Below are positions 13,439-46,599 of a stretch of DNA of 64,000 nucleotides, piece by piece. The notes below the pieces were generated by a model. The model searched no databases. It was given only the letters and a program-made list of their open reading frames with translations, and was not told where the DNA came from. The position numbers and the translations under genes are program-made. How positions within the stretch are numbered: the first letter of the stretch is position 1; each line of letters opens with the position of its first letter. Where the stretch lies: NCBI GenBank assembly GCA_965228045.1, contig OZ245789.1, forward strand, positions 3,522,616-3,586,615, read 5' to 3'. This stretch comes from Cyclobacteriaceae bacterium. GTDB taxonomy: Bacteria; Bacteroidota; Bacteroidia; Cytophagales; Cyclobacteriaceae.

Positions 13439-14020
13439 ATGCGATCATCTCTATTTCTATTTTCAATCATAGCGTACCTGTTGGTGGGCCTAAACGGTTG
13501 CGATCAGGAGGATGTTAAGTCCCGGGCGAGGGCCAAACTTGTCTCTATAAACGCCACTTCCGATTCGACATATTTACCCGGTACAGAAGAGATTGGAGAG
13601 GCTGTTTTTACAGACCTCGGTGACCGGGTTCGCGTTTTTATACAGCTCTATGATATGATCCCAAACTGGGGGCATGCCGTTCACATTCACAATGGTTCTT
13701 GCGAGCAACCCACAAATCATTGGAATATGGGAGACACCATCAATTATTGCAACGAAATGAACCTGGGAGAACCATGGATGCGGCCAAAAGCCGGGGATAT
13801 CGGTAACGTGGAAACAGATGACTTTGGGGATGGTATCCTGATCGTAGAGAGTGAGTTCTGGGATCTGAATGGCTCCAGTGAAAAAAACCTGGAGGGACTG
13901 GTTGTGGTGATCCACGAAAAACCGGAGGATTTTGAGATTGAATGCGGTGAGATGCATACACACAAACACAATAATCGTAAATTGGCGTGCGGAACCATAT
14001 TCCTCGATGCCAATGATTAA
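13439..14020 (+). CDS. Cu/Zn superoxide dismutase-like lipoprotein
   Basis: Lipobox LNGC. HAVHIHNGSCE, GDIGNVETDDFGDG and VVVIHEKPED...LACGTI resemble SodC metal and active-site segments. Confidence 0.6.
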   Translation: MRSSLFLFSIIAYLLVGLNGCDQEDVKSRARAKLVSINATSDSTYLPGTEEIGEAVFTDLGDRVRVFIQLYDMIPNWGHAVHIHNGSCEQPTNHWNMGDTINYCNEMNLGEPWMRPKAGDIGNVETDDFGDGILIVESEFWDLNGSSEKNLEGLVVVIHEKPEDFEIECGEMHTHKHNNRKLACGTIFLDAND

Positions 14021-17441: not shown

Positions 17442-17499
17442 TGCTGAGTAGGTGTAACAGGTATTACGTAAAAAATCTGAAATTGATCCGAAAGGATTC

Positions 17500-28873: not shown

Positions 28874-29371
28874 CTAAAATAATTTTGATATGGTTTTCAT
28901 GGTTATGAACATCTTACCACTTGATGGAAGATGAATAAAACCATACTTCCCGTAGAAATTAACCGCAGTCTGGTCTATTGGATCAACCACAACTGCCATC
29001 GAAGCAACGGTACCAGTAGTATCATAACTTCTTTTAAGAGCATCCATTAATAAAATCTCACCCATTCCTTCCCCAATGTTTTTAACATTTCTAGCCAATC
29101 TTCCTAACAAAGTAACTGGTAAGTTTTCATACGAGGGAGGGAGAATCTTTATCACCTCTTCTGGCAATTCATCTCTATCAATGCTCGAACTTGATAAAGT
29201 ATAATAACCTTTTACAATATTCGATTCATCAGAAAGAACAAAGCAAGCTGACAATTTCCGCTTAACATCCTGACCTGCTTGCTTGCGTAGATAACCATCT
29301 AATAGTTGGTTTCCAGAGGAGAATTCGGACTTTTTATGTGACTTGGATAATGGGTTAGTTAAGTAACTCAT
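28874..29371 (-). CDS. GNAT-family acetyltransferase toxin (TacT/KacT-like)
   Basis: 165 aa. GNAT core LLGRLARNV...GEGMGEILLMDAL...FYGKYGF. 4-nt overlap with the upstream DUF1778 antitoxin gene. Confidence 0.75.
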   Translation of the reverse strand: MSYLTNPLSKSHKKSEFSSGNQLLDGYLRKQAGQDVKRKLSACFVLSDESNIVKGYYTLSSSSIDRDELPEEVIKILPPSYENLPVTLLGRLARNVKNIGEGMGEILLMDALKRSYDTTGTVASMAVVVDPIDQTAVNFYGKYGFIHLPSSGKMFITMKTISKLF

Positions 29372-29649
29372 TTATCGCCTAACGCATCATTGTATTTTTT
29401 GGCGGCCGTTGCCAAGGCCTCGTTTGGTTCTGATTCGCTTAGAAGGGCATTAAAAAAAATCTCCTTGTCCTTTTCAGATGACACGATCCTATTGTGCTCA
29501 TCAATGATTGCCTTAGCCTTATCTTGAACAGAATTAATCACAAATTCTGTTAGAGTACGGTAACCACCAAGTACAGCCGCTCTTTCAAAAAATTCCTTTT
29601 GCTGCTTAGTTAACCTGGTATCAAATCTCGCTTCTGAAGTCTTCATCAT
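29368..29649 (-). CDS. DUF1778 (RHH) antitoxin, TacA-like
   Basis: RFDTRLTKQQKEFFERAAVLGGYRTLTEFVINSVQDKAKAII is typical of DUF1778. Confidence 0.75.
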   Translation of the reverse strand: MMKTSEARFDTRLTKQQKEFFERAAVLGGYRTLTEFVINSVQDKAKAIIDEHNRIVSSEKDKEIFFNALLSESEPNEALATAAKKYNDALGDK

Positions 29650-29775: not shown

Positions 29776-30189
29776 CTAATTTCTCCATGGGTCTACCTGG
29801 TAATCATCCATATAGTTCTGCTTTTGAATGATCATCGCCTTGCTCGTGCCGTTGTCATTTATGGCTGCAAAACCATAATCATAGCAGATGTAATACAATA
29901 GTTTGGGCGAACGATAGGTAGCCGAAAAATATCTGAAATCATATCCCAACTGCAGTAGAACATCTTTTCTGACAGAGGCTTTGCCCTGGGGTGAAAGGGT
30001 TTTGAGAATTCTCCGATTCTGCCTGATGATTCTGTTCACTTCCTGAATATATAATTCATCCTGTCTTTTGACCTGATTGTTAAAAGTGTTTCTGCAGTAA
30101 GCGTCACAAAATTTCTTATCCAGACGACCCACTATTGGTCTTCCGCATTGGAGACATGATCGTCTTACTGCAGCATTCAAATTTTCCAT
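29776..30189 (-). CDS. hypothetical Zn-ribbon protein divergent from the recombinase gene
   Basis: CLQCGRPI...KKFCDAYCRN (a four-Cys cluster) followed by a basic region. 137 aa. Confidence 0.45.
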   Translation of the reverse strand: MENLNAAVRRSCLQCGRPIVGRLDKKFCDAYCRNTFNNQVKRQDELYIQEVNRIIRQNRRILKTLSPQGKASVRKDVLLQLGYDFRYFSATYRSPKLLYYICYDYGFAAINDNGTSKAMIIQKQNYMDDYQVDPWRN

Positions 30190-30271: not shown

Positions 30272-31429
30272 ATGAATTCGCAATCGCACACCAGGGAGCG
30301 CCAGATCACGCTTAAGCATCTGTATTTCGAGGATCAAAAGATGATCGGAATCAAATTTTATCCTGATAAAGTCATCCAGCACATCATCAGGCAGCTACCC
30401 GAACCGAGGTGGAGCGAAAAATACGGGATGGTCTACATCAAAAACAATCCTGAAAACCTGAAGGCTATTTTTGATGGGTTCAAAGGTGTTTGCTGGATCA
30501 ATTGCACCCATTTCTATACCAATCGCCCGGTTAATTTCCATAATACACCATTGGACATAGACGGCTACAGGAAGCGAAAATCTATTCCGGGACGGAGAAT
30601 GGTGCCGGAGGAGTTTTTACAGAAGCTGGAGATTCGAAAATATGCTTTCAACACGGCACGATCCTACATCAGTCATTTTGAGAAGTTCATGAATCACTAT
30701 GGTCAGGTACAGAACCTGATGCAATTAGGCGAACATGAAATCAACGAATACATCAGTCACCTTTTCCGGTCAAAACGTTCGGAGGCATTTATTAAAATGT
30801 CTATCAATGCTATCAAATTCTACTATGAAGTGGTGATGGAGATGCCCAACCGTTTTTACGCTATCAAACAGGTTCAACAGAAGGAATCCCTGCCGAAAGT
30901 CCTTTCAAAGAAAGATATCAATAGAATGATCGATGTGACCACTAATATCAAGCACAAGTGCATTATAAGCCTGTTATACTCATCAGGGCTAAGGAGGCAG
31001 GAATTGCTAAATCTGGAAATAAGTGATATTGACAGTGTGCGAATGACGATCACGGTCAGAGAGGGCAAGGGTAGAAAGGACAGGATCACCCTTCTAAGTC
31101 ATCGCCTTTTGGAGCAGCTCAGAATGTATTATAAATCACACATGCCAAAGAAATTCCTTTTTGAAAGCGCAGCCGGAGAAAGGTATAGCGGATCTAGTGT
31201 AAGGCAGATAGTGCACAAAGCCAGTAGAAAAGCAGGCATCAGACAGAAGGTGACCCCCCACATGCTACGACATAGTTTCGCCACCCATTTATTGGAATCC
31301 GGAACAGATTTGAGGCATATTCAGACCCTTCTTGGGCATTCCACGACCAGAACAACGGAAATATATACCCATGTGAGTACGACACATTTTAATCAGATCA
31401 AAAATCCATTAGATTTGGAGGACATATGA
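30272..31429 (+). CDS. tyrosine site-specific recombinase (Xer-like catalytic domain, ~110-aa N-terminal extension, no IntI insertion)
   Basis: Start taken at MNSQSH. LLYSSGLRRQELLNLEISDID, REGKGRKDR, HMLRHSFATHLLESGTDLRHIQTLLGHSTTRTTEIYTHV (R-H-R-Y set). Only about 50 aa lie between KDR and HMLRH. Confidence 0.85.
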   Translation: MNSQSHTRERQITLKHLYFEDQKMIGIKFYPDKVIQHIIRQLPEPRWSEKYGMVYIKNNPENLKAIFDGFKGVCWINCTHFYTNRPVNFHNTPLDIDGYRKRKSIPGRRMVPEEFLQKLEIRKYAFNTARSYISHFEKFMNHYGQVQNLMQLGEHEINEYISHLFRSKRSEAFIKMSINAIKFYYEVVMEMPNRFYAIKQVQQKESLPKVLSKKDINRMIDVTTNIKHKCIISLLYSSGLRRQELLNLEISDIDSVRMTITVREGKGRKDRITLLSHRLLEQLRMYYKSHMPKKFLFESAAGERYSGSSVRQIVHKASRKAGIRQKVTPHMLRHSFATHLLESGTDLRHIQTLLGHSTTRTTEIYTHVSTTHFNQIKNPLDLEDI

Positions 31430-31432
31430 TAG

Positions 31433-31457
31433 TTATCCGCAATAAACGTGCGGATAA
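31433..31457 (+). other. 9-bp perfect inverted repeat directly after the recombinase stop
   Basis: TTATCCGCA-ATAAACG-TGCGGATAA, followed by CTTGT...ACAAGG and a T6 run. Terminator or protein-binding site. Confidence 0.35.
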
Positions 31458-31933
31458 CTTGTTGTTGGGGCACAAGGCTTTTTTGAAAAATGTACTTTTT
31501 AATTTTTGTGAAAATCATCCCTTACTTCAAACCCATTTAAGCACTTAATGATGACTTTTAAAATGCAGTTGTGTTATGATTTGGACCAGAATCTTCTGTG
31601 GTTACCTGTATCCTTCCAAAACTTTTCTGCTACCTGAACTTTCCCCTGCTTACCCAGCCGAGGGGTTGAGCACAAGCCTGTACTTATCTGATGCTTCTCG
31701 TCAATTGGATTGAAAGTTTTGAAAGGTTAGTGGTAAATCTAAGCTGCTCGTCTCTTTATATCGGTAGTGTGCTCAGATTTATCCCTAGTGGCTCGCGCTG
31801 GCCGATTCCGTGGATACCAAAATAATGATGTCAAAAAGTGCCTGTGCTTTTGCTGGTAAAATATGTGCCCAACATTGCCTATGTTTAAAAGCGTGGTAGT
31901 GAATTACGAGGCTTCTTCCCTATTTGATACTCC

Positions 31934-31996
31934 GCGATTTCTGCGAAATCGCAAAATTAGCTCTTGAAATATGTTTTGCGATTTCGCAGAAATCGC
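31934..31996. promoter_or_regulatory. pair of 19-bp palindromes (23-bp perfect inverted repeat arms) in the array leader
   Basis: GCGATTTCTGCGAAATCGCAAAA (31934-31956) and its exact reverse complement TTTTGCGATTTCGCAGAAATCGC (31974-31996). Confidence 0.5.
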
Positions 31997-32081
31997 TACT
32001 TTGGTAATACAAACAGTTTGGCTATTTAATACGCTTCAAAACATAGCCTTAACGTTATGTGGAATTAGCGCAACTCAAGAA

Positions 32082-32744
32082 ATGGATGAAGATGAAATAA
32101 AGATACTCGATCAATTCATTGCGGAACTCAACCAGAACCTTGAAAAGAATCTTCCCAAGATTGCTGCTCAGTTTGTGAACGACTATGAATCCCCTGAATT
32201 TGACCCTCTGAGGGATGAGATAACCAAATGTTTGTTATGTGATTTTTGCCAAGCTGCAATAACACTAACGAACCATCTAACTGAGAATTTCCTAAAAACA
32301 ATGCTGGTTTACCATGAGTCTCTTGAGAACGGTGAACACAACGACCTAACAACACTATTTTCGAAAGGGCTAGACATCTATGACAATATGAATTTAGTCG
32401 ATACGATTGATAAGGCCTGTGAACATCAAATCATCAATGAAGAGCAGAAAGCAACGCTTCACAAATTTCGTCATGACTTCAGGAATCCCTACTCTCATGC
32501 GAGTAAGCGGAAAATCTTCAAAGACTCCAAAATTCGAACACAAAAGCTATCCCTGAACAAGGAATTGAAGTACGAACTGGAAGAACCGAAAGAATCATTG
32601 GCATCTAACCTTGTATTTGCACAGGGACTAATTCAGACTCTTCTAAGCAAACAAATTGCATTTGACTACTTCAAAACTGTGGACAAAATTATCAGAGATG
32701 CCTTGGCTGAATTCTATAAAAACAACGATAAAACATCCACATAA
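32082..32744 (+). CDS. cassette 1 ORF, hypothetical (contains an RNxxxH, HEPN-like motif)
   Basis: Start moved to MDEDEIK, because the track start at 31971 lies inside the palindrome and upstream of the GTT core at 32054. Motif FRHDFRNPYSHAS. Confidence 0.5.
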   Translation: MDEDEIKILDQFIAELNQNLEKNLPKIAAQFVNDYESPEFDPLRDEITKCLLCDFCQAAITLTNHLTENFLKTMLVYHESLENGEHNDLTTLFSKGLDIYDNMNLVDTIDKACEHQIINEEQKATLHKFRHDFRNPYSHASKRKIFKDSKIRTQKLSLNKELKYELEEPKESLASNLVFAQGLIQTLLSKQIAFDYFKTVDKIIRDALAEFYKNNDKTST

Positions 32745-32976
32745 CAGACGCTGATCGGGCATATGTCTTAGTGCTTTCTGGCTGGTTTCAGTGGAACTCG
32801 ACCGTGATATCTGCCGCTGAGAAACGGCTGTGCTTTCCACCATCTTTTGCTCGCAGGAGTTTTTGACTTTCAGAACGCAGTGCCATTTAGAACCGTTGTG
32901 AGCTTCGGCAGATTTCACTACATTCGTGCTATTCACTAGCTGCGGGACATACGCCCGATAGCTGGTCGTTAGCACC
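32737..32976 (+). repeat. attC-like structured repeat of cassette 1
   Basis: Starts CCACATAAC (the stop codon lies inside it) and ends GTTAGCACC. Outer arms CAGACGCTGATCGGGCATATGTC / GACATACGCCCGATAGCTGGTCG and inner arms GTGATATCTGCCG / CGGCAGATTTCAC are inverted repeats. Confidence 0.7.
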
Positions 32977-32994
32977 AATATTCCTAAGTCGCAT

Positions 32995-33570
32995 ATGACA
33001 GACCTAATTCAACGAATCCAGAACTGGTACATGATTAACTGCAATGGCGACTGGGAACACAATTTTGGTTACTCAATTGCAACATTGGACAATCCTGGAT
33101 GGACAATTAGGATTGACTTAGACGGAACTCCTTTAGACACTCTGGAATTCAAACGAAACTACCAAAATCCGAACGACGAACAGGATTGGTTCAACATCAA
33201 GACCAAGAACATGGTTTTAGAGATTTTCTGTGGCCCATCGAACCTCGAAACGGTCTTTAAGCTTTTCTTTGATGAAATCATTCCTAACCACTCAGATTCC
33301 AACTTTTGGTATGACGTTTACTTAGAACTCGAAGGAACTTCGAACAAAATATGGACTCCAGCCAAAGCCAAACTTATCAACGAGGTAACACTAGAACTTG
33401 TGGAAATTAAGGAGCCAGTTTACAAGGAACTGAAGGCTAAAACATGGGAAAATTTTGACCAAGTTGAAAGCCTTCTGCCAACTCTCAAACATCGGTTTAA
33501 CATTGGAGACCGAGTGCGAACTGAACTAACGGAAGTTCATGACGGACTGATCCAAGTGGCGGTAAAATAA
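32995..33570 (+). CDS. cassette 2 ORF, Imm53-like immunity protein
   Basis: IQNWYMINCNGDWEHNFGYSIATLDNPGWTIRIDLDGT matches the immunity-53 family pattern as I recall it. ATG is 20 nt after the GTT core. Confidence 0.6.
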   Translation: MTDLIQRIQNWYMINCNGDWEHNFGYSIATLDNPGWTIRIDLDGTPLDTLEFKRNYQNPNDEQDWFNIKTKNMVLEIFCGPSNLETVFKLFFDEIIPNHSDSNFWYDVYLELEGTSNKIWTPAKAKLINEVTLELVEIKEPVYKELKAKTWENFDQVESLLPTLKHRFNIGDRVRTELTEVHDGLIQVAVK

Positions 33571-33572
33571 CT

Positions 33573-33757
33573 GGTGCTAACAGACGCTGATCGGGCATAT
33601 GTCTCAGTGCTTTCTGGCTGGAATCAGTGCAACTCGACCGTGATATCTGCCGCTGAGATATGGTAGTGCTTTCTACAGACTTTTGCTCGCAGGATTTTTT
33701 GATTTTCAGAACGCAGTGCCATTTGGAACCGTTGTGAGCTTCGGCAGATTTCACTAC
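33573..33757 (+). repeat. attC-like repeat of cassette 2, 5' part (interrupted by IS110 element)
   Basis: Starts GGTGCTAAC. Nearly identical to 32746-32926 up to ...CGGCAGATTTCACTAC, then diverges into the IS. Confidence 0.7.
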
Positions 33758-35108
33758 TTCCTATGTTACAAAACGATTACCAAAGGATCATTTATTTTGG
33801 TAAGTAGTGGGGAGAAATGAGAGCAAATTCGCTAGTAAATAGTCTAAAGACATATTCACACTAAGGTATCGCCTCATTTCTTTCTTTCTCTTAGAGTTTA
33901 AACAGAATGTAAAGCGGGATTTTCCCCAGCTAGAATATCAGACAGGAGGTAAAACGAAGGGAGACATCCGCTATTATCTTTTTATTCAACCCTTTGAAAA
34001 TGAAAACTATTAAGCAAGTCGTTGGTGTGGATGTAGCTCAGAATGAGTTGGTCTGTACCTTTGGTCAGTTGTATGAAGATTTAAGTATTGGCCGGTATAT
34101 TCACCGGGTTTTTGATAACAACCTTAAAGGATTCAAGAACATTATTCGGTGGATTCAATCGGTCAAGTCCGATGATTTATCAATACAAATAGTAATGGAA
34201 CCCACCGGGGTATATCATGAGAAATTTGCTCATTGGCTCTTTGATCAAGCTCACAATGTTGCCATTGTACTACCTAACAAAGTCAGTAATTATGCCCGGA
34301 CTTTATCTATAAAAACAATCACTGATAAAACGGCTTCCCAAACTATTGCTCAGTTTGGATTGGAGAGAAAGCTGGATCTATGGAATCCTCCAAAACCTGT
34401 TTTCCGAACCATGAAGCAGTTAACCAGGGAACGTGATCAGATTGTGGCAGAGCGAGTTACGATCAAAAATCAGATCCATGCTGAAAATGCTGAAGCATAT
34501 CCTAATCCAAACTCTCTTAAGCGACTCAAAGCCAGAAAGGCTCTCCTATCAAAACAAGAGCAAGAGATTAAGAACGAAATCCAACAATTAGTAAAAAGTG
34601 ATTTGGAGATTGAAAAAGACATTGGATTGATGACTACTATCCCAGGAGTAGGTAATCTCACAGCAGCTATTGTTCTGGCTGAAACAAATGGTTTTGAACT
34701 TATCCGCAACAAAAAGCAATTGACTAGTTATGCGGGTTTGGACGTCAGAGAAAAGCAATCAGGAACTTCAGTCAAAGGAAAACCCAGGATATCCAAACAA
34801 GGAAACAGATTTTTAAGAAAAGCTATGCACCTGCCATCATTATCAGCCATTCGACATTGTCATATGTACAAAAGCAACTTTGCAATGCATGTCGGTAAAC
34901 ATGGTATCAAAATGAAAGCAGCAGTGGCCGTTCAGCGTAAAATTCTGGAACTGATGTATGTGCTTTATAAAACCAAAGTCCCATTCGACCCATATTATCA
35001 ATTTAAAAAGGGACAACAATCCGATGTTGATGCCCCTTTACAATCTAGCTTATGCTGATTTTACTTAAAGTTAGAAAATATCATTTCTATCTTTGGTTTT
35101 TAACACAG
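33758..35108 (+). mobile_element. IS110-family insertion sequence (copy 1) inside an attC-like repeat; ends approximate (+/-10 bp)
   Basis: The flanks rejoin into one attC-like repeat when compared with 32926-32976. About 240 nt of non-coding 5' end and about 50 nt of 3' end. Confidence 0.65.
34000..35058 (+). CDS. IS110-family (DEDD) transposase/recombinase
   Basis: MKTIKQVVGVDVAQ (N-terminal GxDxxK-type start), EPTGVYHE, and the C-terminal IPGVGNLTAAIVLAE...SYAGLDVREKQSG module. Confidence 0.85.
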   Translation: MKTIKQVVGVDVAQNELVCTFGQLYEDLSIGRYIHRVFDNNLKGFKNIIRWIQSVKSDDLSIQIVMEPTGVYHEKFAHWLFDQAHNVAIVLPNKVSNYARTLSIKTITDKTASQTIAQFGLERKLDLWNPPKPVFRTMKQLTRERDQIVAERVTIKNQIHAENAEAYPNPNSLKRLKARKALLSKQEQEIKNEIQQLVKSDLEIEKDIGLMTTIPGVGNLTAAIVLAETNGFELIRNKKQLTSYAGLDVREKQSGTSVKGKPRISKQGNRFLRKAMHLPSLSAIRHCHMYKSNFAMHVGKHGIKMKAAVAVQRKILELMYVLYKTKVPFDPYYQFKKGQQSDVDAPLQSSLC

Positions 35109-35166
35109 AATCTTAGTGCTTTCTGCCAACTGTGGGCACACAAACCGATAGTTAGGCGTTGAGCGC
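35109..35166 (+). repeat. attC-like repeat of cassette 2, 3' part
   Basis: TCTTAGTGCTTTCTGCCAACTGTGGGCACACAAACCGATAGTTAGGCGTTGAGCGC aligns with 32927-32976. Ends in tandem cores GTTAGGC and GTTGAGCGC. Confidence 0.65.
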
Positions 35167-35190
35167 AATTGGCGCAACTCGAATCTGATT

Positions 35191-35589
35191 ATGAACTATC
35201 CAACTTTATCTCTTGTCATCAACTTCGGGTTAATTCTAACCTTTGCATTCCTACTGCTTCGATACAACAATTTTAAGTATGTGATTTTTCTGCTGATTGC
35301 AATTGGACTTGCTTACTATGGATATACTGAACGACTGAACCCCGAACTTCAACAAGTAAGAGGTCACGCCAGTAATTACTTTTACTTACCCATACTAATG
35401 CTCATTTATTGGCAAATATTTCGAACTGTTTACAAAGCGTTCTATAAACAGGAACCATCAATCACTTGGCCTGGAGCAACAACCAAGAGCATGGACATTT
35501 TGAACGAACGGAGAATAACATACGGAGATGGCTTCTTCACAATTGGAATATTTATAGCCCCAATCCTTACCATAATCCTTTTGGGTTAA
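35191..35589 (+). CDS. cassette 3 ORF, small integral membrane protein
   Basis: 132 aa with about four hydrophobic helices. ATG is 24 nt after the GTTGAGCGC core. Confidence 0.55.
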   Translation: MNYPTLSLVINFGLILTFAFLLLRYNNFKYVIFLLIAIGLAYYGYTERLNPELQQVRGHASNYFYLPILMLIYWQIFRTVYKAFYKQEPSITWPGATTKSMDILNERRITYGDGFFTIGIFIAPILTIILLG

Positions 35590-35600
35590 CAACTAAAACT

Positions 35601-35839
35601 GCGCTCAACAATGTGTATGGACGCATGTGCGAACTGAGCATTTAGCCGGTTTCTGTGGAACTCGACCGTGAATCAGCCGCTGAAGATACTTTTCTGCTTT
35701 CTACCAATCTAAGTTCGCAGGAGTTTTTAATCTTCTGAACGCACTCTCTTTGATACTTTGGAAGCACCGGCAGATTTCATTATTTTGCTGCTATTAGCCA
35801 TTGGGGCGCACACAGCGCCATACACAGGCGTTGGAGCGC
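35601..35839 (+). repeat. attC-like structured repeat of cassette 3
   Basis: GCGCTCAACAATGTGTATGGACGCATGTGCG ... CGCACACAGCGCCATACACAGGCGTTGGAGCGC (inverted arms). Contains the CGGCAGATTTCA internal module. Confidence 0.7.
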
Positions 35840-35850
35840 ATCACTGCATC

Positions 35851-36462
35851 ATGAAAGAACTTCTACTAATTACTTTGGGACTGATGAACTTCACTATTCA
35901 GGCACAAATTGTGAAACCTGAAAAAGGTCATTATGTCCGGGAGATTTTGGTCGAACCTGACACCTTGTTTTTCAATTCACTTCCACTTTTTATACATCCA
36001 CATGGAACCGTATTCATAACAACTAACGACACCTCGTCATTTGAACTTAGTGAAGTAGAATTCGTTGAAGGGGCATTTGTGTTTAAAACTGACTCACACT
36101 TCTACGTTTTTTATGAAGAAACCGATATGCTAAGTGGGACCAGCTATTTAGAAGTTTTCGGATCTGTCAATTTGGAACATCTCTACCGAACTCATATTCC
36201 CGGATTCAATCTTGGACAACCTGTAATCAAAGATCAATTCGCATATGTTTCTACAATTGGACTTGTTGGCAAGATCGATTTAACTACAGGTGAATTCGTT
36301 TGGAAGTTTGACGACCTCTATGACCATCAAACATACGACTTTAACAACTTTGATGCCGCTGAACTCATAGGCGAACAGGTAATATTCAGCTCTCCTAACA
36401 GAATTAAGAACCGAACCCGAACGATTCTGGTGAACGACCAAACTGGAGAACGAATAGAATAA
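35851..36462 (+). CDS. cassette 4 ORF, secreted hypothetical protein
   Basis: Start moved to MKELLLITLGLMNFTIQAQ (signal peptide), 11 nt after the GTTGGAGCGC core. The track start at 35758 lies inside the repeat. Confidence 0.55.
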   Translation: MKELLLITLGLMNFTIQAQIVKPEKGHYVREILVEPDTLFFNSLPLFIHPHGTVFITTNDTSSFELSEVEFVEGAFVFKTDSHFYVFYEETDMLSGTSYLEVFGSVNLEHLYRTHIPGFNLGQPVIKDQFAYVSTIGLVGKIDLTTGEFVWKFDDLYDHQTYDFNNFDAAELIGEQVIFSSPNRIKNRTRTILVNDQTGERIE

Positions 36463-36472
36463 ACGCGCTCCA

Positions 36473-38314
36473 ATCGAGTAGACGGCCGTGAGCCATAAGC
36501 CCACGGTGCGCCTCTCACACCACCCAGCGTACGGTTCTCGTACTGGGCGGTTCATTGAATTTCGGGTTGAGTTTTAAGGTAATAGGAAAGCATCGACTTG
36601 TACCCTCGCCTTCTAAGTCTGGACAGTGTAATAGTGGTCCGTAGAATCGGACTTTGAGCCACAAACCAGCCACCTCTACGGGTACGACTGTATGCATAGG
36701 CTCTATCCTTATCCAAATCTAGCCGGATCAGATTCTTACACTTCCTATCAGGCTTCTTCCAGTGATGCCAGATGCAGTATCTCAGACGATTCCTCAGCCA
36801 TTCGTCTAGTGCTTTGAGTTTGGCTGAAATGTTCGCTAAGCGAAAGTTGTTCACCCATCCTCGCCACACTTCGGCAAGCTGCTGTAAACGCTCATCGAAA
36901 CTCATCGGTCTGGTCTTCCTGGAAATGTCCTTCAGTTTGCGCTTGAGGTTTCCCCACGCTTTCTTTGATACTACCAGCTGGTATTGCCCTTTCATCCCCT
37001 TCTTATACACTGCGGCAAAACCGTGCCCCAGCAACTCGAAGTTTACAGGTCTGCGAATGCCTGATTTCTCCCTATTGATAGGTAATCGCAATGTGTCCCT
37101 AAGGAACTTGTAGATGGCATTACCTATCTCACGGGCTTCTGCTTTTGACTTGGCATAGATGCTGAAGTCATCGGCATAACGGACATATCGCAACCCTTTC
37201 CTTGCCAACTCCTTATCCAGCTCATCCAGCAGGATATTGGACAGTAGTGGGCTAAGTGGTGATCCTTGCGGCATCCCTTTACGGCGTTTGTGCAATCTAC
37301 CCTTTATCCAGATTGGTGCTCTCAGCCATTTGCGGATCAGCCGCAGGGTTGTTGGGCATTTTACCCGTTTGTAGATCAGGTGTAACAGCTTCGCATGGTC
37401 TACTTCATCGAAGAACCCTTTAAGGTCTATGTCTACAATATCCTGATACCCATTGTTGATGTAGTTCAGGGCTTGGGTCACTGCCTGTTGGGTGTTCTTT
37501 TCCGGCCGAAAACCATAGCTAAATGGCTCAAAGTCTAATTCAAACTTTGTGGCCAATACCTGGCTAACCGCCTGCTGTAACCAGCGGTCTGTTAAGTGTG
37601 GGGATTCCTAGTAATCTAGTCTTCCCATTCCCCTTGGGTATTTCTATCCCAAGGATAGCATTAGGTACATACGTGTGGTTCAGGACTTCCGTGATGATCT
37701 TCTCACGGTTGGCTTCCAAATGTTTTGGGAGTTCCCTGACTGTCATCCCGTCAATCCCTGCAGCTCCTTTGTTGTTTACCACCTGTCGGCAGGCCACATA
37801 AAGGTTCTTACGTTTTAGTACTTCTGCTATCATAAAACTTAATTCCCTATCCCTCTAAGGACAGGCTCTGATCCTATCCGAATCGGGACGCAATTCATTG
37901 TTCAGTCCTTCCCTGACTTGTGAGTCTTCCATCTCTTTCAATGGCTCGTGGCTGTCAGGTACTACGACTTCTGCTGACTTCTCGATCCGCATCTCGTGCG
38001 GTCCGAGACCTCCCCGGGTAAGACACTTATCCTTCTACTGACTCCCGCCGTATCTACCAACCGAAGTTTGTTGACCATGTACTTTACAGTGATGTGCCTG
38101 CTTGTACACTTCGGTTGGCCTCTGTATACGATTCCTGTTCGTCAGTGCCAGTATTTGCAGTCCTGCTTCCCTGCCTGCGGCAGGCAGGCTTCAGTGCTGA
38201 CCTCACGGTCAACCACCTTGCAGCTTGCTAGTGACTTCTGTCAACTTCGTCACACGGATCTTTCATCCGCTGGATATTTTGGCTATCTTCATAGCCGTGC
38301 CATGCCGGGCACAC
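36473..38314 (-). mobile_element. group II intron, class C-like, copy 1 (IEP frameshifted)
   Basis: Minus-strand 5' end GTGTGCCCGG and 3' end ...CTACTCGAT. Domain V-like hairpin CCGCCCAGTACG-AGAA-CCGTACGCTGGGTGG near 36520-36555. About 99% identical to 39108-40951. Confidence 0.75.
36552..37833 (-). pseudogene. group II intron reverse transcriptase/maturase, disrupted
   Basis: Two ORFs (36552..37556 and 37564..37833) correspond to the intact 426-aa ORF of copy 2. C is replaced by AG at 37595-37596 (net +1 nt). Confidence 0.8.
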
Positions 38315-38429
38315 ACAGACACTAAAATGAATATGCGAACTGAGTCATTTGAAAGGACAATGCAGAGAGGAAACTTTGGTGCTTTTAGCAACTGGGACGC
38401 ATACTCATTTTAGTTGAGCGTTACCTGTC
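38315..38429 (+). repeat. attC-like repeat of cassette 4, 3' part (the 5' 8 nt are at 36465-36472, left of the intron)
   Basis: Rejoined 5' end is GCGCTCCA+ACAGACACTAAAATGAATATGCG. It pairs with CGCATACTCATTTTAGTTGAGC. Ends GTTACCTGTC. Confidence 0.65.
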
Positions 38430-38477
38430 AGCACTGCATGGCGAACAGTAAACATGAATTTTTCGTAACTTTATCTC

Positions 38478-38717
38478 ATGGATGCTAATATGAATCTTTC
38501 TTTCGCTCAAATACTTGAACTGGTTAGGAACTTACCAGGTGAACAGAAGATCAAGATTTCACAAGAACTTGAGAAGGAGACTATTGGGTCTAAACTGACA
38601 GAACTTCTAACTGCATTCCGAACTGACAAAATTTCGATGAATGAGATAACTGCTGAAGTTGAGCAAGTCCGCCAAGACCTTTATGACAAACAAACATCGA
38701 ACAAAGGTCATAATTGA
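38478..38717 (+). CDS. cassette 5 ORF a, putative antitoxin
   Basis: 79-aa acidic ORF overlapping the start of the PIN toxin gene. Confidence 0.5.
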   Translation: MDANMNLSFAQILELVRNLPGEQKIKISQELEKETIGSKLTELLTAFRTDKISMNEITAEVEQVRQDLYDKQTSNKGHN

Positions 38718-39108
38718 CACCAACATTTGGATTAGTTATCTAATAGGTATTCAACTCGGTGGACTAACCGAACTCCTATCAACGAGACAAATTGAACTCG
38801 TCCTATCCGAACAACTTTTGACAGAGATTAAGGAAGTAACAGCAAGAAAGAAATTTCGAAAATATTTCGGTGAACATGAGGTGAATGAACTCTTAAAACT
38901 CATGGAGATTTTAGGAACGAGGTTTGAGGTTATTGAGTATCCCAATATTTGTAGAGATGCCAAGGATAACTTCTTGCTTGGCTTAATCAGAGCTTCTCAA
39001 GCTGACATACTTGTAACTGGTGACCAAGATCTTCTGGAACTGAACCCCTTCGAAGGAACCGAAATAATCGAGGCGGGCCAACTGTTGGAGAAAATAGCCG
39101 ACAGGTAA
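38683..39108 (+). CDS. cassette 5 ORF b, PIN-domain toxin
   Basis: KVIIDTNIWISYL, RDAKDNFLLGL and ADILVTGDQDLL (the acidic PIN residues). ATG at 38683 chosen over the TTG at 38659. Confidence 0.8.
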   Translation: MTNKHRTKVIIDTNIWISYLIGIQLGGLTELLSTRQIELVLSEQLLTEIKEVTARKKFRKYFGEHEVNELLKLMEILGTRFEVIEYPNICRDAKDNFLLGLIRASQADILVTGDQDLLELNPFEGTEIIEAGQLLEKIADR

Positions 39109-40951
39109 TCGAGTAGACGGCCCCACCAGCGATAACTGATGGGGTGCGCCTCTCACACCACCCAGCGTACGGTTCTCGTACTGGGCGGTTCATTGAATTT
39201 CGGGTTGAGTTTTAAGGTAATAGGAAAGCATCGACTTGTACCCTCGCCTTCTAAGTCTGGACAGTGTAATAGTGGTCCGTAGAATCGGACTTTGAGCCAC
39301 AAACCAGCCACCTCTACGGGTACGACTGTATGCATAGGCTCTATCCTTATCCAAATCTAGCCGGATCAGATTCTTACGCTTCCTATCAGGCTTCTTCCAG
39401 TGATGCCAGATGCAGTATCTCAGACGATTCCTCAGCCATTCGTCTAGTGCTTTGAGTTTGGCTGAAATGTTCGCTAAGCGAAAGTTGTTCACCCATCCTC
39501 GCCACACTTCGGCAAGCTGCTGTAAACGCTCATCGAAACTCATCGGTCTGGTCTTCCTGGAAATGTCCTTCAGTTTGCGCTTGAGGTTTCCCCACGCTTT
39601 CTTTGATACTACCAGCTGGTATTGCCCTTTCATCCCCTTCTTATACACTGCGGCAAAACCGTGCCCCAGCAACTCGAAGTTTACAGGTCTGCGAATGCCT
39701 GATTTCTCCCTATTGATAGGTAATCGCAATGTGTCCCTAAGGAACTTGTAGATGGCATTACCTATCTCACGGGCTTCTGCTTTTGACTTGGCATAGATGC
39801 TGAAGTCATCGGCATAACGGACATATCGCAACCCTTTCCTTGCCAACTCCTTATCCAGCTCATCCAGCAGGATATTGGACAGTAGTGGGCTAAGTGGTGA
39901 TCCTTGCGGCATCCCTTTACGGCGTTTGTGCAATCTACCCTTTATCCAGATTGGTGCTCTCAGCCATTTGCGGATCAGCCGCAGGGTTGTTGGGCATTTT
40001 ACCCGTTTGTAGATCAGGTGTAACAGCTTCGCATGGTCTACTTCATCGAAGAACCCTTTAAGGTCTATGTCTACAATATCCTGATACCCATTGTTGATGT
40101 AGTTCAGGGCTTGGGTCACTGCCTGTTGGGTGTTCTTTTCCGGCCGAAAACCATAGCTAAATGGCTCAAAGTCTAATTCAAACTTTGTGGCCAATACCTG
40201 GCTAACCGCCTGCTGTAACCAGCGGTCTGTTACTGTGGGGATTCCTAGTAATCTAGTCTTCCCATTCCCCTTGGGTATTTCTATCCCAAGGATAGCATTA
40301 GGTACATACGTGTGGTTCAGGACTTCCGTGATGATCTTCTCACGGTTGGCTTCCAAATGTTTTGGGAGTTCCCTGACTGTCATCCCGTCAATCCCTGCAG
40401 CTCCTTTGTTGTTTACCACCTGTCGGCAGGCCACATAAAGGTTCTTACGTTTTAGTACTTCTGCTATCATAAAACTTAATTCCCTGTCCCTCTAAGGACA
40501 GGCTCTGATCCTATCCGAATCGGGACGCAATTCATTGTTCAGTCCTTCCCTGACTTGTGAGTCTTCCATCTCTTTCAATGGCTCGTGGCTGTCAGGTACT
40601 ACGACTTCTGCTGACTTCTCGATCCGCATCTCGTGCGGTCCGAGACCTCCCCGGGTAAGACACTTATCCTTCTACTGACTCCCGCCGTATCTACCAACCG
40701 AAGTTTGTTGACCATGTACTTTACAGTGATGTGCCTGCTTGTACACTTCGGTTGGCCTCTGTATACGATTCCTGTTCGTCAGTGCCAGTATTTGCAGTCC
40801 TGCTTCCCTGCCTGCGGCAGGCAGGCTTCAGTGCTGACCTCACGGTCAACCACCTTGCAGCTTGCTAGTGACTTCTGTCAACTTCGTCACACGGATCTTT
40901 CATCCGCTGGATATTTTGGCTATCTTCATAGCCGTGCCATGCCGGGCACAC
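39108..40951 (-). mobile_element. group II intron, class C-like, copy 2 (intact IEP)
   Basis: Same termini as copy 1. Inserted at the PIN stop codon inside GACAGGTA^AC. Confidence 0.8.
39190..40470 (-). CDS. group II intron-encoded reverse transcriptase/maturase (no endonuclease domain)
   Basis: RT motifs GIPTVTDRWLQQA, SYGFRP, DIDLKGFFD, GMPQGSPLSPLLSNI and YVRYADDF, followed by a maturase X region. 426 aa. Confidence 0.9.
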   Translation of the reverse strand: MIAEVLKRKNLYVACRQVVNNKGAAGIDGMTVRELPKHLEANREKIITEVLNHTYVPNAILGIEIPKGNGKTRLLGIPTVTDRWLQQAVSQVLATKFELDFEPFSYGFRPEKNTQQAVTQALNYINNGYQDIVDIDLKGFFDEVDHAKLLHLIYKRVKCPTTLRLIRKWLRAPIWIKGRLHKRRKGMPQGSPLSPLLSNILLDELDKELARKGLRYVRYADDFSIYAKSKAEAREIGNAIYKFLRDTLRLPINREKSGIRRPVNFELLGHGFAAVYKKGMKGQYQLVVSKKAWGNLKRKLKDISRKTRPMSFDERLQQLAEVWRGWVNNFRLANISAKLKALDEWLRNRLRYCIWHHWKKPDRKRKNLIRLDLDKDRAYAYSRTRRGGWFVAQSPILRTTITLSRLRRRGYKSMLSYYLKTQPEIQ

Positions 40952-41175
40952 ACATGTGCTATGGCGAATGGCCAAACTGCCTATCGGATATTTCAATGCA
41001 ACTCGTCCGTTTCATCTGCTGCCGGGGCAACAGATGTGGAATTTGCCAGAGCAAATCCCGGAGGAGTGGATTAACAGAACGCATGGCCATTTGAACCGTT
41101 GTGAGCTTCAGCAGATTTCACTACTTTAGGTGCTGTTTAGAAAGGATATGGCCACATCGCCATATCTGATCGATA
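40952..41175 (+). repeat. attC-like repeat of cassette 5 (lacks a recognisable GTT core at its 3' end)
   Basis: ACATGTGCTATGGCGAATGGCC ... GGCCACATCGCCATAT inverted arms. Shares GAACCGTTGTGAGCTTCAGCAGATTTCACTAC with the cassette 1 and 2 repeats. Confidence 0.6.
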
Positions 41176-42229
41176 TCTATGGTAAAATCAAGCCATTTCA
41201 ACTTTTTTAAATACAATTTTATCCTGATAGGGTGTTCCACGTTTGACCACTGCCACGATCCGATGCAATAGTTTGTTTCTGATCGCATTAAGGATGGTCA
41301 TTTTACCTTTACCTTCTTCACGTTTTCGTTGATAATATTCCTTTAACTCCGGACAATGTCGAATGGCGCTCATGGCAGCCATGTGCAAATGATACTTTAA
41401 GACTTTGTTAGCAAAACTTGAGGTCCCTGGTGTTCCTTTGATGCTCGAACCACTACTGTACTCAAATGGAGCTACACCACAATAACAAGCCAGTTTCTTG
41501 CCATCCAACATTCTCGTAAATCCATGAGTGTAAACAATCAGATCTGTGGCCAGCACCTTACCCACACATTTCACTGAGGTAATGAGTTCATACAGTGCTC
41601 GCACCTCTCGGTCCATCTGGATTACTTCCAACATTTTCTCTTCAACTTTCTTCAATGACTTGGCCAATCCTTCCAGGGCCGTCTTACTAAGTCGTTTCAT
41701 CTCCCTGGCTGCCTTTTTATCGAAGTGTTCGGTCTCACTGATGGCCAGTTCCTGACACTGTTTACTTTTCAGTAATCTGGCTCTCAGGCGCATCAGGTAC
41801 TGTAATCGCTGCAATGTAGGATGTGTGAGTTTTACCAGCTTGGCCTGATGGTGGTGGACCAAAGCAAATCTGGCAATGCGCTCAGCATCGATCTTATCAC
41901 TTTTGCCTCTGACTAAACCAATACTACGCTTGATATGTAGAGAGGACTCCAACCAGACCTTACCACCACGACTTATTAAGTACTTGACCAGGTTCTGGGT
42001 GTAAATACCCATGTGCTCCATGCAAAACAATGTCCTTTCATGATCATCGTTCCCATGTTGTTTCATCCATCTTTTCAGCTTGGTATAACCTTCTGAGGTA
42101 TTTGTCAGGACGGTGGTACATTGACGCTGTGATACCATCTCGATCATGCATACGTCCATACTTTCTTTACTCACATCTATCCCTACAATAAAGGGATATA
42201 TCAATTGTGGAGTTGATTCTTTCTTCATT
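41176..42229 (-). mobile_element. IS110-family element, copy 2; essentially ORF only, ends not definable
   Basis: The transposase ORF is bounded within about 12 nt by the attC-like repeat on one side. On the other side it meets the higB remnant directly. Confidence 0.45.
41188..42228 (-). CDS. IS110-family (DEDD) transposase/recombinase
   Basis: PFIVGIDVSKESMDV, MEHMGIYT and the C-terminal VKCVGKVLATDLIVYT...CYCGVAPFEYSSGSS module. Divergent from copy 1. Confidence 0.85.
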   Translation of the reverse strand: MKKESTPQLIYPFIVGIDVSKESMDVCMIEMVSQRQCTTVLTNTSEGYTKLKRWMKQHGNDDHERTLFCMEHMGIYTQNLVKYLISRGGKVWLESSLHIKRSIGLVRGKSDKIDAERIARFALVHHHQAKLVKLTHPTLQRLQYLMRLRARLLKSKQCQELAISETEHFDKKAAREMKRLSKTALEGLAKSLKKVEEKMLEVIQMDREVRALYELITSVKCVGKVLATDLIVYTHGFTRMLDGKKLACYCGVAPFEYSSGSSIKGTPGTSSFANKVLKYHLHMAAMSAIRHCPELKEYYQRKREEGKGKMTILNAIRNKLLHRIVAVVKRGTPYQDKIVFKKVEMA

Positions 42230-42304
42230 AACGACCAATGGAGAATTATTTTCCTATGGGAAGATGGAAATGCCAGTAAAGTTGAAATTATTGATTATCA
42301 CTAA
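42227..42304 (+). pseudogene. higB: 3' remnant of higB (RelE/ParE-superfamily killer)
   Basis: INDQWRIIFLWEDGNASKVEIIDYH* matches the C-terminal ~25 aa of HigB toxins. The N-terminal ~65 aa are missing at the IS junction. Confidence 0.65.
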
Positions 42305-42307
42305 AAA

Positions 42308-42622
42308 ATGAAGAATATGGAAAAGCTACCGAACATACATCCAGGCGAAGTACTATCAGAAGAATTTTTGAAACCATTGGGAATTTCTGCTTATCGCTTA
42401 TCCAAGGATTTACATATTCCCCAAACACGAATAAGCGAAATTCTAAAAAAGAATCGACGGATAACTGCAGATACAGCTTTGAGATTAAGTAGATACTTCG
42501 GAACAACTCCGAAATTCTGGCTAGGGCTCCAAGATGACTTTGATATAGAAGAGGAACTTGGAACCAAGACTGACGAACTAGAATCAATAGAAAAAGTGAC
42601 GACAGACCAACAGACGATATAG
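42308..42622 (+). CDS. higA: HigA-family antitoxin (XRE HTH)
   Basis: IHPGEVLSEEFLKPLGISAYRLSKDLHIPQTRISEILKKNRRITADTALRLSRYFGTTPKFWLGLQ. Confidence 0.85.
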   Translation: MKNMEKLPNIHPGEVLSEEFLKPLGISAYRLSKDLHIPQTRISEILKKNRRITADTALRLSRYFGTTPKFWLGLQDDFDIEEELGTKTDELESIEKVTTDQQTI

Positions 42623-42712
42623 CACATATCTCTACTGAGTTACTTGAAATTGAAGTGCAAAACCGAAACTTTAGTGATATTTGAAAGGCCAGAGGCACGC
42701 GCCATATCTAGG
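42603..42712 (+). repeat. attC-like repeat after higA (degenerate)
   Basis: Starts GACCAACAGACG inside the higA 3' end. Shares ACTGAGT.A.TTGAAA and GAAACTTT.GTG with the cassette 4 repeat. Ends ...CGCCATATCTAGGCATTGTGTGG (ATT rather than GTT). Confidence 0.4.
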
Positions 42713-42736
42713 CATTGTGTGGAATAAAGCACTCTA

Positions 42737-43030
42737 ATGAAAGACCTCTCCCCAGACTATAATTCAACATATATAAGCATTAACCTAATTGATGAATTAG
42801 ATTATGTTGTTGGAGGATATGGTCAATCGAATGCGGTTTTCATTTATTCCTTAAATGCTTTTTTAGAGGCATTTATATTTAACAACCATTTCTATGTTTC
42901 TGGACAGGAAGCATCCCATTTCCAAATTGTATAGAAAGCAATGTTTCCTAATGGCAGGCCAATTCTTGAACTCATTACTAAAACAAAGAGCGCAATCCCG
43001 GTGGAGTTTCAAGAGCTATGGTTGTTCTTG
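42737..43030 (+). pseudogene. frame-broken remnant of an unknown gene
   Basis: Three short ORFs in different frames abut each other (42737..42934, then MFPNGRPILELITKTKSAIPVEFQELW...). Confidence 0.25.
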
Positions 43031-43136
43031 TTCCATTATTAATCCTTACTTCATTGATAGCGTATTTGTGGATTTTGATATTTGGAGGATATACTGATAG
43101 GATTATCTTATTAATATACTATAATGATATACCTTT

Positions 43137-43388
43137 GTGGTATTAAAATTTGTTGTTGTGAAAACAGTATCTTTAAAAATAGATGATTCAATTTTCGGTG
43201 AGACTGAAAAAATACTTGCTCGGATTAAGAAACCACGGAATCGATATATAAACGAAGCGATTGAATTTTATAATAAAATTCAGCGTAAAGAGATTCTTGA
43301 GAAAAAACTTAAAAAAGAATCTGGATTAGTTAAAGCGGATTCAATGTCCGTGCTAAAAGACTTTGAGGAGATGGATTATGTCGATTAA
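43137..43388 (+). CDS. ribbon-helix-helix antitoxin (MazE/CopG-like)
   Basis: VSLKIDDSIFGETEKILARIKKPRNRYINEAIEFYN. GTG start is uncertain. Overlaps the toxin start by 11 nt. Confidence 0.6.
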   Translation: MVLKFVVVKTVSLKIDDSIFGETEKILARIKKPRNRYINEAIEFYNKIQRKEILEKKLKKESGLVKADSMSVLKDFEEMDYVD

Positions 43389-43725
43389 GCAATTTGAAAT
43401 TTGGATTGCAGATTTAAATCCACAGCTTGGAACTGAACCCGGTAAAACAAGACCAGTTTTGGCGATACAGACAAATCTGCTAAACAAGATACCTCACCCA
43501 TCAACTATTATTTGTCCAATTACAACAAACGTAACAAAGGATTCTGAGATATTAAGAGTGCATCTAAAAAAGGGAACAGCCAATTTACATCAAGCCTGTG
43601 ATGTCATGATTGACCAAATTCGTGCGATAGATAATAAACGATTAACAAAAAGACTAGGGATTTTACCTGATGCACTGATTAATATAGTGAAAGAAAATAT
43701 TCAGATTGTACTTGACCTAGAATAA
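43378..43725 (+). CDS. mazF: PemK/MazF-family endoribonuclease toxin
   Basis: FEIWIADLNPQLGTEPGKTRPVLAIQTN, ICPITTN and VMIDQIRAIDNKRL. Confidence 0.8.
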   Translation: MSIKQFEIWIADLNPQLGTEPGKTRPVLAIQTNLLNKIPHPSTIICPITTNVTKDSEILRVHLKKGTANLHQACDVMIDQIRAIDNKRLTKRLGILPDALINIVKENIQIVLDLE

Positions 43726-43822
43726 TGCACGAGACCACAACATCAGCTATAAACAAGCAGGCGAACAATGAAAGACTAAATGATAATACTTTTAACAAAC
43801 AGACAATTACGAAAGCAAACGA

Positions 43823-45982: not shown

Positions 45983-46599
45983 ATGCCTGCCAGATCGCTG
46001 ACGCTGAAGCTTTAGCGAAAGAGTCCGGCAGGCTGGTTTGCTGGTGTCTCTTTGTACGGCGTTGAGGAGCGCCTGGTGGATTTTCATAACGTCGTATGTG
46101 TCCGCCAGCGATTACATGGACTGGCGGTAACAAGTATGTTAGATTTCTTATCTATAAACCCCTGGAGTCAGCATGTTGACGGCATCAAACTCTCCAGATT
46201 TGAATTTGATCTGACTGGATACGATAGATAATCTTATAGTCCTTCGCAATCTTGGCGTACACGTTTTTGGGGGTGGTTGCTGTCCCGATATGAGCTAACT
46301 ATTAAAAACGCAATACTGACCAGAAGTAAAATGAAATCTAACGCCAGATATGGCGTTGTGCCATAGCTTTTAAGGGACTCAAAACCAGCAATATTTACAG
46401 CAAAACATTCCTGTTTGGATATTCCATAAAACGATGAAGAATTCAAGTATTTGCTTCATAGTTTATATCCCGGCTGCATAGTTTTTATGACTTCCTTAAA
46501 ATTTATGGATTTGGCTTCATAGGTCATAAGCCTCTCTTTCTCACCTCCCAGACCTTTGTAAAAATCAATTAATCACATAGTACATAAAAAATTAAGATC

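Follow-up and report, generated by a model that had tools for sequence, protein, structure and literature searches.

What assembles a row of gene cassettes beside a tyrosine recombinase that is not an integron integrase (IntI)? The question is raised by a 64,000-nt stretch of contig OZ245789.1 (assembly GCA_965228045.1) from a Cyclobacteriaceae bacterium, which we call the window and whose positions serve as coordinates here. In it, a tyrosine recombinase gene (30272..31429, + strand) is followed by small genes in the same orientation, separated by imperfect palindromes of 110-228 nt that run from AAC to GTT. A first-pass annotation of this DNA had left two alternatives standing: either a non-IntI, Xer-like recombinase runs a cassette platform here, in Bacteroidota, or the array is a CALIN, a cluster of attC sites without an integron integrase of its own, that adjoins an unrelated integrase. 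Comparison with related loci, through the linkage of recombinase and array, the turnover of the cassettes and the confinement of the repeats to the arrays, supports the first alternative and makes the second unlikely. On these comparative grounds we consider it likely that the locus is a sedentary chromosomal integron-like platform for cassette capture, built on a different, Xer-like tyrosine recombinase. The unit comprises a divergent zinc-ribbon gene, the recombinase, a primary site 35-65 nt past its stop codon and a co-oriented array, and recombinase, primary site and array are physically linked.

Neighboring repeats are joined by a complement rule: past the genes that lie between them, the 3′ flank of each repeat matches, in reverse complement, the 5′ flank of the following one. 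All five pairs quoted in the first-pass annotation proved exact on computational checking: GTTATGTGG (32054-32062) with CCACATAAC (32737-32745), GTTAGCACC (32968-32976) with GGTGCTAAC (33573-33581), GTTGAGCGC (35158-35166) with GCGCTCAAC (35601-35609), and, across an inserted intron marked ^, GTTGGAGCGC (35830-35839) with GCGCTCCA^AC (36465-36472 + 38315-38316) and GTTACCTGTC (38420-38429) with GACAGGTA^AC (39100-39107 + 40952-40953). Each match extends 6-7 nt beyond the fixed triplet, with a chance of about 4^-6 for each pair. Within one repeat the two flanks show no such complementarity, and the palindromes therefore do not account for the rule. Such linkage is the signature of units once circularized and joined at the conserved GTT/AAC triplet, and the pairs place the cassette boundaries at this core. 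With the crossover set at G|TT, the start of a cassette complements its own R″ box, both in the window and in its relatives. Among twelve related loci that we fetched at 49-90% identity (L001, L002, L004, L005 and L081-L088), consecutive sites are linked by 6-7 nt in all but L083, which shows only a link at the primary site; seven shuffled loci, scored at a threshold of at least 3 nt, gave 0-1 links each. A detector of AAC...GTT hairpins alone was too unspecific, with 17-36 matches per shuffled 64 kb at threshold 10, and is useful only in combination with the complement rule. We also considered the cassettes as elements with terminal inverted repeats, akin to miniature inverted-repeat transposable elements, and ruled this out, as their termini differ from cassette to cassette beyond the triplet.

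The array begins at a candidate primary site, analogous to attI, directly downstream of the recombinase gene. In the window (31432..31466, + strand) it consists of an 11-bp hairpin, GTTATCCGCA...TGCGGATAAC (31432-31458), a 5-nt spacer and a core GTT (31464-31466) that lies 35 nt past the recombinase stop codon. Nine of the 11 relatives examined have a covarying hairpin of 8-11 bp at this place, followed after 4-6 nt by GTT, which is found 39-45 nt past the stop codon (65 nt in L005). In nine of the 11, too, the 6-7 nt that follow the primary GTT match, in reverse complement, those just ahead of the AAC that ends the first cassette, where chance would give about 0.03 such links per locus by our own estimate rather than a tool's. 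The first cassette of the window (31465..31873, + strand) is bounded by this core and by the AAC of the first site, and has no open reading frame (ORF) of at least 50 aa on the + strand.

The primary site is also where related genomes part company. In all 12 loci, which span Cytophagales, Flavobacteriales and Balneolaceae, small co-oriented genes follow the 3′ end of the recombinase gene, their contents differ from locus to locus, and some loci lie in different chromosomal neighborhoods. Three of them, L081, L087 and L088, are 82-84% identical with 100% coverage over 11.2 kb of upstream genes, recombinase and hairpin, and this shared sequence stops at ...CCAAATGTT, at the GTT of attI. The next bases are AGAGCCC, ATATGCC and GGCATTA, respectively, and downstream of the primary site the three loci share only 12-20%, all of it in attC-sized pieces. 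Single cassettes recur in new places. An ORF-less cassette of 727 bp is present in three copies in L082 (11177-11934, 11904-12661, 14661-15418), where it occupies the first position of the array, and in three copies in L087 (~12090-13565, ~17050-17605), with about 80% identity between the two genomes; a promoter or a small RNA are possibilities for its role. Likewise, a cassette with a 160-aa ORF is 84% identical between L084 and L087 and lies at different positions. Cassette content, as these alignments show it, varies at a fixed platform, and turnover begins exactly at the primary site. The fixed, syntenic gene order that would have spoken against a cassette system is thus not what close relatives display, and the search for the same recombinase beside different cassettes, proposed with the first-pass annotation, was answered in 12 loci. 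Among the cargo of the relatives are RES/Xre, TIR, DMP19, YARHG, reverse transcriptase (RT), MerT/ArsR, cation efflux, HEPN_AbiU2 and ParE genes. In L086, a Balneolaceae metagenome-assembled genome, co-oriented small genes, including Shedu-like (SduA_C) and AbiEii-like ones, also lie upstream of the recombinase (1-9729).

The association of recombinase and array has a clear phylogenetic limit. The best 120 homologs of the recombinase are all about 360-440 aa long; named among them are Cytophagales (Reichenbachiella, Marinoscillum, Ekhidna, Cyclobacteriaceae) and Balneolaceae. A genome scan with the pattern LRHSFATHL returned 80 recombinase loci, but the pattern is too generic and only about 6 of the 80 were close relatives; closer ones were obtained by exact-protein look-ups, while a look-up with the window's own recombinase gave no match. 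Scanned loci below about 47% identity had at most isolated links, with the exception of L072, a canonical IntI locus, and homologs at 30-46% identity that have the N-terminal domain described below had no arrays (L018, L027 and others). The array link is limited to the recombinase clade at about 47% identity and above. Recombinases 34-38% identical, with what by eye seems a similar N-terminal domain, occur in L024 (Firmicutes UBA5388), L039 (Anaerophaga) and L018 (Spirochaetota); no cassette arrays were detected in the checked distant loci of other phyla. No close homolog was found on plasmids (best 40% identity) or phages, and hence nothing indicates mobility of the platform itself.

What kind of enzyme, then, stands at the head of the array? 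Its ORF is intact and has all catalytic residues (R241, K266, H330, R333, H356 and Y365), while its start codon is uncertain (30224, 30242 or 30272). The integron integrase profile of NCBIfam, TIGR02249, scores 191.5 bits in two stretches and fails its cut-off of 265, and the XerC (191.4 bits, cut-off 335) and XerD (189.1 bits, cut-off 330) profiles fail as well; XerA_Arch (NF040815) is passed marginally, with 224 bits at a cut-off of 220, although the host is bacterial. On TIGR02249 the bona fide IntIs of L069, L072 and L079 reach 373-467 bits. Between the lysine hairpin and HxxR the recombinase has 88 aa, the same as Xer/XerA-like proteins, against 130 aa in IntIs, a comparison made with these three true IntIs and with what we take to be the sequence of IntI1. 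Moreover, the alignment to the VchIntIA structure skips chain residues 180-246. The IntI insertion is absent from the recombinase. In a neighbor-joining tree, a rough method applied here to only 269 columns, IntI was monophyletic in 200 of 200 replicates and joined the recombinase family in 0 of 200. The best match of the core in both sequence and fold is archaeal XerA (PDB 4a8e, 5hxy). The first-pass annotation fares well on this protein: the R-H-R-Y boxes are present, the IntI patch is missing, and the N-terminal extension of about 110 aa is real. It was right on a short spacing after REGKGRKDR, which measures 58 aa to HMLRH rather than about 50, and right that the gene is transcribed toward the cassettes, which is not new, being known from "inverted" and archaeal integrons.

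Recognized domains (SAM_4 and Phage_integrase, that is, a SAM-like core-binding and a catalytic domain) begin only at residue 113. Residues 1-112 form a separate N-terminal domain, confidently predicted as an α/β fold (predicted local distance difference test 84.5) and conserved in an alignment of 60 homologs. It had no match in Pfam and no significant one among PDB folds (best E = 0.048), and a search of 1.84 billion representative proteins gave only 164 matches; weak resemblances to MutS domain I, to the damage-recognition domain of XPB and to the HARP domain were not significant. The recombinase also has a conserved companion, the zinc-ribbon gene at 29776..30189 (- strand, 137 aa). By tblastn, 14 loci of the family, throughout the clade linked to arrays, have a homolog that is likewise divergent and starts from 100-550 bp upstream of the recombinase, whereas none is present next to the distant recombinase homologs. 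In Pfam its product has only a weak treble-clef match to DUF2116, and a role in regulation or as an accessory factor is possible. Beyond this gene, on its upstream side and already outside the platform, a TacA-like antitoxin (29368-29649) and a GNAT-type toxin (28874-29371) are encoded on the - strand.

The repeats themselves are built to a common plan. From 32 sites of the window and the relatives we derived the top-strand layout N7-AAC-A-(2-3 nt)-L″...L′-(3-5 nt)-C-GTT-N7. Mismatches between the arms are polarized: when the 5′ arm is compared with the reverse complement of the 3′ arm, A in the former faces G in the latter 46 times, and G faces A 4 times. Folding of the bottom strand thereby gives G·T wobbles, and that of the top strand A·C mismatches. 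At the first of these positions, about half of 31 sites carry a single additional base on the 5′ arm and the others a G·T wobble; in a folded bottom strand this base would be extrahelical and located on the ″ arm, as it is in classical attC sites. In 25 of the 32 sites the fold of the bottom strand is more stable than that of the top strand, by a mean of 2.1 kcal/mol (DNA parameters; Wilcoxon p = 1.6e-4), a statistic that overstates independence because the copies share a common descent. The AAC-A/C-GTT asymmetry is also seen in L072, a true IntI locus, with extra bases on the same arm.

Covariation gives the same picture. Fifteen copies of a type of about 225 nt, from five genomes (32743-32970 and 35607-35832 in the window plus 13 homologous sites in L001, L081, L082 and L084), support two helices: 94.5% of cells pair, against 72% in shuffles, and 21 of 27 pairs have compensatory changes, a number reached by 0 of 500 shuffles; in slid controls, 28-43% pair. 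In 15/15 copies, one G·T pair does not vary. The second helix, of 10 bp, and a conserved center of about 95 nt have no counterpart in classical attC sites; the "conserved internal module" of the first-pass annotation does exist, as one arm of this second covarying helix. These patterns show that the sites have been selected for a hairpin that forms better on the bottom strand. A profile of the sites matched only inside the array in the 64-kb window and, in the 12 related loci, gave 51 matches downstream of the recombinase and 0 in the upstream flanks. As far as the available sequence reaches, the sites are not generic genome-wide repeats of the repetitive extragenic palindromic type, and an Rfam scan of the window returned only the intron matches described next.

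Some of the sites have been occupied by other elements, which tell something about their structure. The insertions that the first-pass annotation saw splitting two repeats are group II introns, recognized by RF02001 on the - strand (38023-38212 and 40660-40849) and by an RT/maturase. Their ends are GTGTG...AT, and they interrupt the R″ box of the bottom strand at GT^T, opposing cassette transcription. Copy 1 (36473..38314, -) has a frameshifted RT (36552-37833) and copy 2 (39108..40951, -) an intact RT/maturase (39190-40470). They are copies of one group IIC intron, with 100% identity in the 300-nt stretches compared, and this suggests that the intron was recently active in folded sites. Two insertion sequences (IS) of the IS110 family, each with DEDD transposase and Transposase_20 domains, are also present. 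Element 1 (33758..35110, +; right boundary approximate), with its transposase at 33994-35058, lies in the loop of a site. The site halves on its two sides belong to different types and cannot pair, which suggests that cassettes were lost in an IS-associated deletion. Element 2 (41173..42231, -; transposase 41188-42228) is inserted exactly after the core G (41172/41173), as happens twice in L083 (13645-14715, 18089-19163). In the window it is truncated on the side upstream of the transposase, where about 200 nt are missing, and adjoins a higB fragment without its 5′ part, so a deletion must have occurred there.

With these elements placed, the array of the window can be read from end to end, all cassettes and sites on the + strand. 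Site S0 (31871..32056), an attC-like hairpin of 186 nt, is linked by the cassette rule (k = 7) to 32743. Cassette 1 (32055..32745) has an ORF (32082-32744) for a 220-aa protein without assigned function and ends in S1 (32743..32970), an attC-like site of 228 nt and of the long type (nhmmer E = 3e-55). Cassette 2 (32969..33581) encodes an Imm53 immunity protein (32995-33570). The left part of its site, S2 (33579..33757), is 92% identical to S1 and is interrupted by IS110 element 1, after which the right part of a site (35111..35160) ends in a core GTT at 35158-35160. Cassette 3 (35159..35609) encodes a hydrophobic, probably membrane protein of 132 aa without a family match (35191-35589) and is closed by S3 (35607..35832), attC-like, 226 nt and of the long type. 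Cassette 4 (35831..36472; ORF 35851-36462, 203 aa, no family match) ends in GCGCTCCA, its AAC core split by intron copy 1; the rest of S4 (38315..38422) gives a site of 110 nt once rejoined with 36471-36472. Cassette 5 (38421..39107) encodes a VapB15-like antitoxin (38478-38717) and a PIN toxin (38659-39108) and is followed by intron copy 2 and the rest of S5 (40952..41172), of the long type and complete to the core G at 41172 (nhmmer 40952-41172, E = 1e-26). Beyond IS110 element 2 lies a cassette remnant (42233..42622) with the higB fragment (42233-42304) and higA (42308-42622). Its site, S6 (42609..42716), is degenerate: the core GTT is mutated to ATT, but the arms fit GATAT[A/G]GC...[A/G]T of related sites and nhmmer matches the tail (42668-42715). 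The last cassette (42715..43741) holds short ORFs, a putative antitoxin (43137-43388) and a PemK/MazF toxin (43363-43725). It terminates in CCACAAC, a weak remnant of the expected CCACACAAC, and marks the end of the array, as the site profile gave no further site beyond it. The co-oriented units of the first-pass annotation are thus borne out, as are the sites it listed; that list lacked S0, the complete S5, the degenerate S6 and the attI-like site. Its distance of 10-25 nt from GTT to ORF start did not hold, the measured range being 19-56 nt. A search of the window cassettes against the PADLOC library of defense proteins gave no significant match. Directly after the array lies a gene for an S9/DPP-IV-type peptidase (43823-45982, +); the 2-kb bin that holds most of it (44001-46000) has 54.5% G+C, compared to 37-38% in the adjacent bins, and this region may be foreign DNA or the original chromosomal flank.

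How would such a platform work? We propose that the bottom strand of a site would fold into a hairpin that contains both R and L boxes, which molecules of the recombinase, probably the neighboring one, would bind and cleave at the conserved triplet (G|TT of the top strand). The partner in the exchange of one strand would be the primary site or a second folded site, and replication would resolve the junction; in this manner, single cassettes could be excised as circles and re-inserted preferentially at the primary site. The N-terminal domain, perhaps together with the zinc-ribbon protein, may replace the missing IntI insertion in recognizing the hairpin.

Several observations weigh against reading the locus as an integron-like platform. 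All evidence for cassette recombination is comparative. L003 and L004 have no recognizable primary site. In the window, the match of the primary site to GTGCCCAAC (31865-31873) contains a 1-nt indel, and the right flank of attI is CTTGTTGTT, with TTGTT in the place where CCAAATGTT of the relatives has CAAAT. Our data cover the fetched loci, and a canonical IntI acting in trans from elsewhere in the genomes is conceivable. Finally, according to Messier and Roy (2001), as quoted in PMC9668308, the IntI insertion is necessary for attC recombination.

The explanation that survives best beside a working platform is that the family is or was active, and that the copy in the window is a frozen relic in which cassettes are no longer exchanged. 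The altered attI flank and the indel in the first-cassette link would fit a relic, as would the mutated core of S6 and the occupation of sites by two IS with adjacent deletions and by two introns. Nevertheless, the recombinase ORF is complete, five cassette links are perfect, and the identity of the intron copies speaks for sites that folded recently. We therefore hold a relic to be possible but doubtful; the copy may be partly decayed and, given its flank and first link, less active than its relatives.

A different objection concerns the substrate. The recombinase might move cassettes as an ordinary Xer enzyme would, with duplex sites as its substrate, which is what has been proposed for pdif modules; the palindromes would then serve another purpose, for example transcription termination. 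Its core is Xer/XerA-like throughout, and the primary site can also be read as two short inverted elements around a 5-nt spacer, ATAAC-CAAAT-GTTAG. However, the invariant G·T wobbles and the A/G polarity of the arms amount to pairing on one strand, which would not be selected in a duplex site; the R″ and R′ boxes of one cassette are complementary yet 60-220 nt apart, as a folded site needs; and the sites are used by introns of the group IIC-attC kind, which insert into the bottom strand of attC, opposite to cassette transcription, and target folded bottom strands (PMC3001079). Together, these three features point to a folded, single-stranded substrate for the proposed platform, and we regard the double-stranded alternative as improbable. 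The notion that the array is a CALIN-type remnant, or a true array served in trans by a canonical IntI elsewhere, with the adjacent recombinase unrelated to it, can draw on the missing insertion, on a published analysis that took such neighbors not to be IntI (PMC4889954) and on the restriction of our data to loci, but it is very improbable in view of the joint occurrence of recombinase and array in 12 loci (with a primary site in 9 of 11 examined) that differ in contents and partly in neighborhood, of a first cassette boundary at a fixed distance from the recombinase stop codon, of a conservation among close relatives that ends exactly there, and of the near absence of IntI from Bacteroidetes (PMC9024848).

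Understood as a platform for cassette capture, the locus can be set beside known systems. With IntI integrons it shares the cassette geometry, the G|TT crossover, the R″-L″...L′-R′ order with AAC-A...C-GTT, one additional base on the ″ arm of about half of the sites, cassette ORFs that share an orientation and lack obvious promoters, toxin-antitoxin cassettes, sites parasitized by group IIC introns and IS110, and turnover at the level of strains. It differs from them in a recombinase that lacks the insertion, fails TIGR02249 and falls outside the IntI clade, in the additional N-terminal domain without known relative and the conserved zinc-ribbon companion, in conserved G·T wobbles that largely replace extrahelical bases, in an asymmetric spacer (about 3 vs 4.5 nt), and in the many sites of about 225 nt with a second conserved helix. 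In work attributed to Val et al. in 2005, XerCD is said to integrate the folded CTX phage at dif1, recombining a hairpin of one strand with a duplex site. There as here, an Xer-type enzyme without the IntI insertion would act on a hairpin, one pair of strands would be exchanged and replication would resolve the product; the CTX case thus indicates that the insertion is not indispensable for an Xer-type enzyme to act on a hairpin. However, in that case a whole phage genome enters the chromosomal dif by means of housekeeping enzymes, and there is no array, no cassette and no dedicated recombinase. The pdif modules of Acinetobacter plasmids, reportedly described by Blackwell and Hall in 2017, are likewise small gene modules bounded by Xer-type sites and thought to be moved by Xer-like recombination. 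Their sites, in contrast, are 28-bp duplex XerC/XerD sites in alternating orientation, without long hairpins, the R″/R′ rule, a dedicated adjacent recombinase or a primary site. Archaeal XerA resolves chromosome dimers at dif and has neither the additional N-terminal domain nor a cassette array. An attI located just downstream of a co-oriented integrase is also known from "inverted-integrase" and archaeal integrons (PMC9668308; PMC4889954). By the rules of IntegronFinder the arrays described here would be CALIN at best, since no IntI is adjacent; unlike a CALIN, they consistently come with one particular recombinase family and with a primary site.

We found no published description of the platform in the full-text literature, a coverage that leaves out subscription journals. 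Integron surveys select integrases by the IntI insertion (PMC2426708; PMC4889954). Recombinases of this kind beside arrays, in genomes lacking IntI, were noted in only 21 cases, four of which were placed between IntI and Xer, each with fewer than three sites (PMC4889954). For Bacteroidetes, the IntegronFinder 2.0 study mentions In0 elements, which go back to an earlier survey. Its complete integrons belong to the wider Bacteroidetes/Chlorobi group (Chlorobi, Ignavibacteriae), and for Bacteroidetes proper it names one, that of Salinibacter ruber (PMC9024848). Smyshlyaev et al. describe the insertion as "not fully conserved" in a subgroup of integron-like recombinases and describe no arrays (PMC8138268). 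The platform as proposed works like an integron yet fails the integrase-related part of the definition, and surveys of the IntegronFinder type, which require the IntI insertion, would miss or undercount such arrays.

On balance, we lean toward the view that integron-type capture evolved or survived on a second, Xer/XerA-like lineage without the IntI insertion, which would use a new N-terminal domain, and possibly a zinc-ribbon partner, to recognize folded bottom strands marked by G·T wobbles; it would occur regularly in marine and soil Bacteroidota and would have been missed because surveys require the insertion. Integrons are defined, sought and explained by way of this insertion, which is held to enable recombination of folded attC sites. 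If this view is true, the platform shows that it is not the only solution and offers a second system in which to ask how the recognition of single-stranded sites evolved from Xer. The enzyme and its sites could possibly be applied as a second structure-specific recombination tool. For the bacteria themselves, these arrays carry toxin-antitoxin pairs, immunity and defense-like genes and metal-resistance genes, and the finding, if true, would open to integron biology a phylum thought to be almost integron-free.

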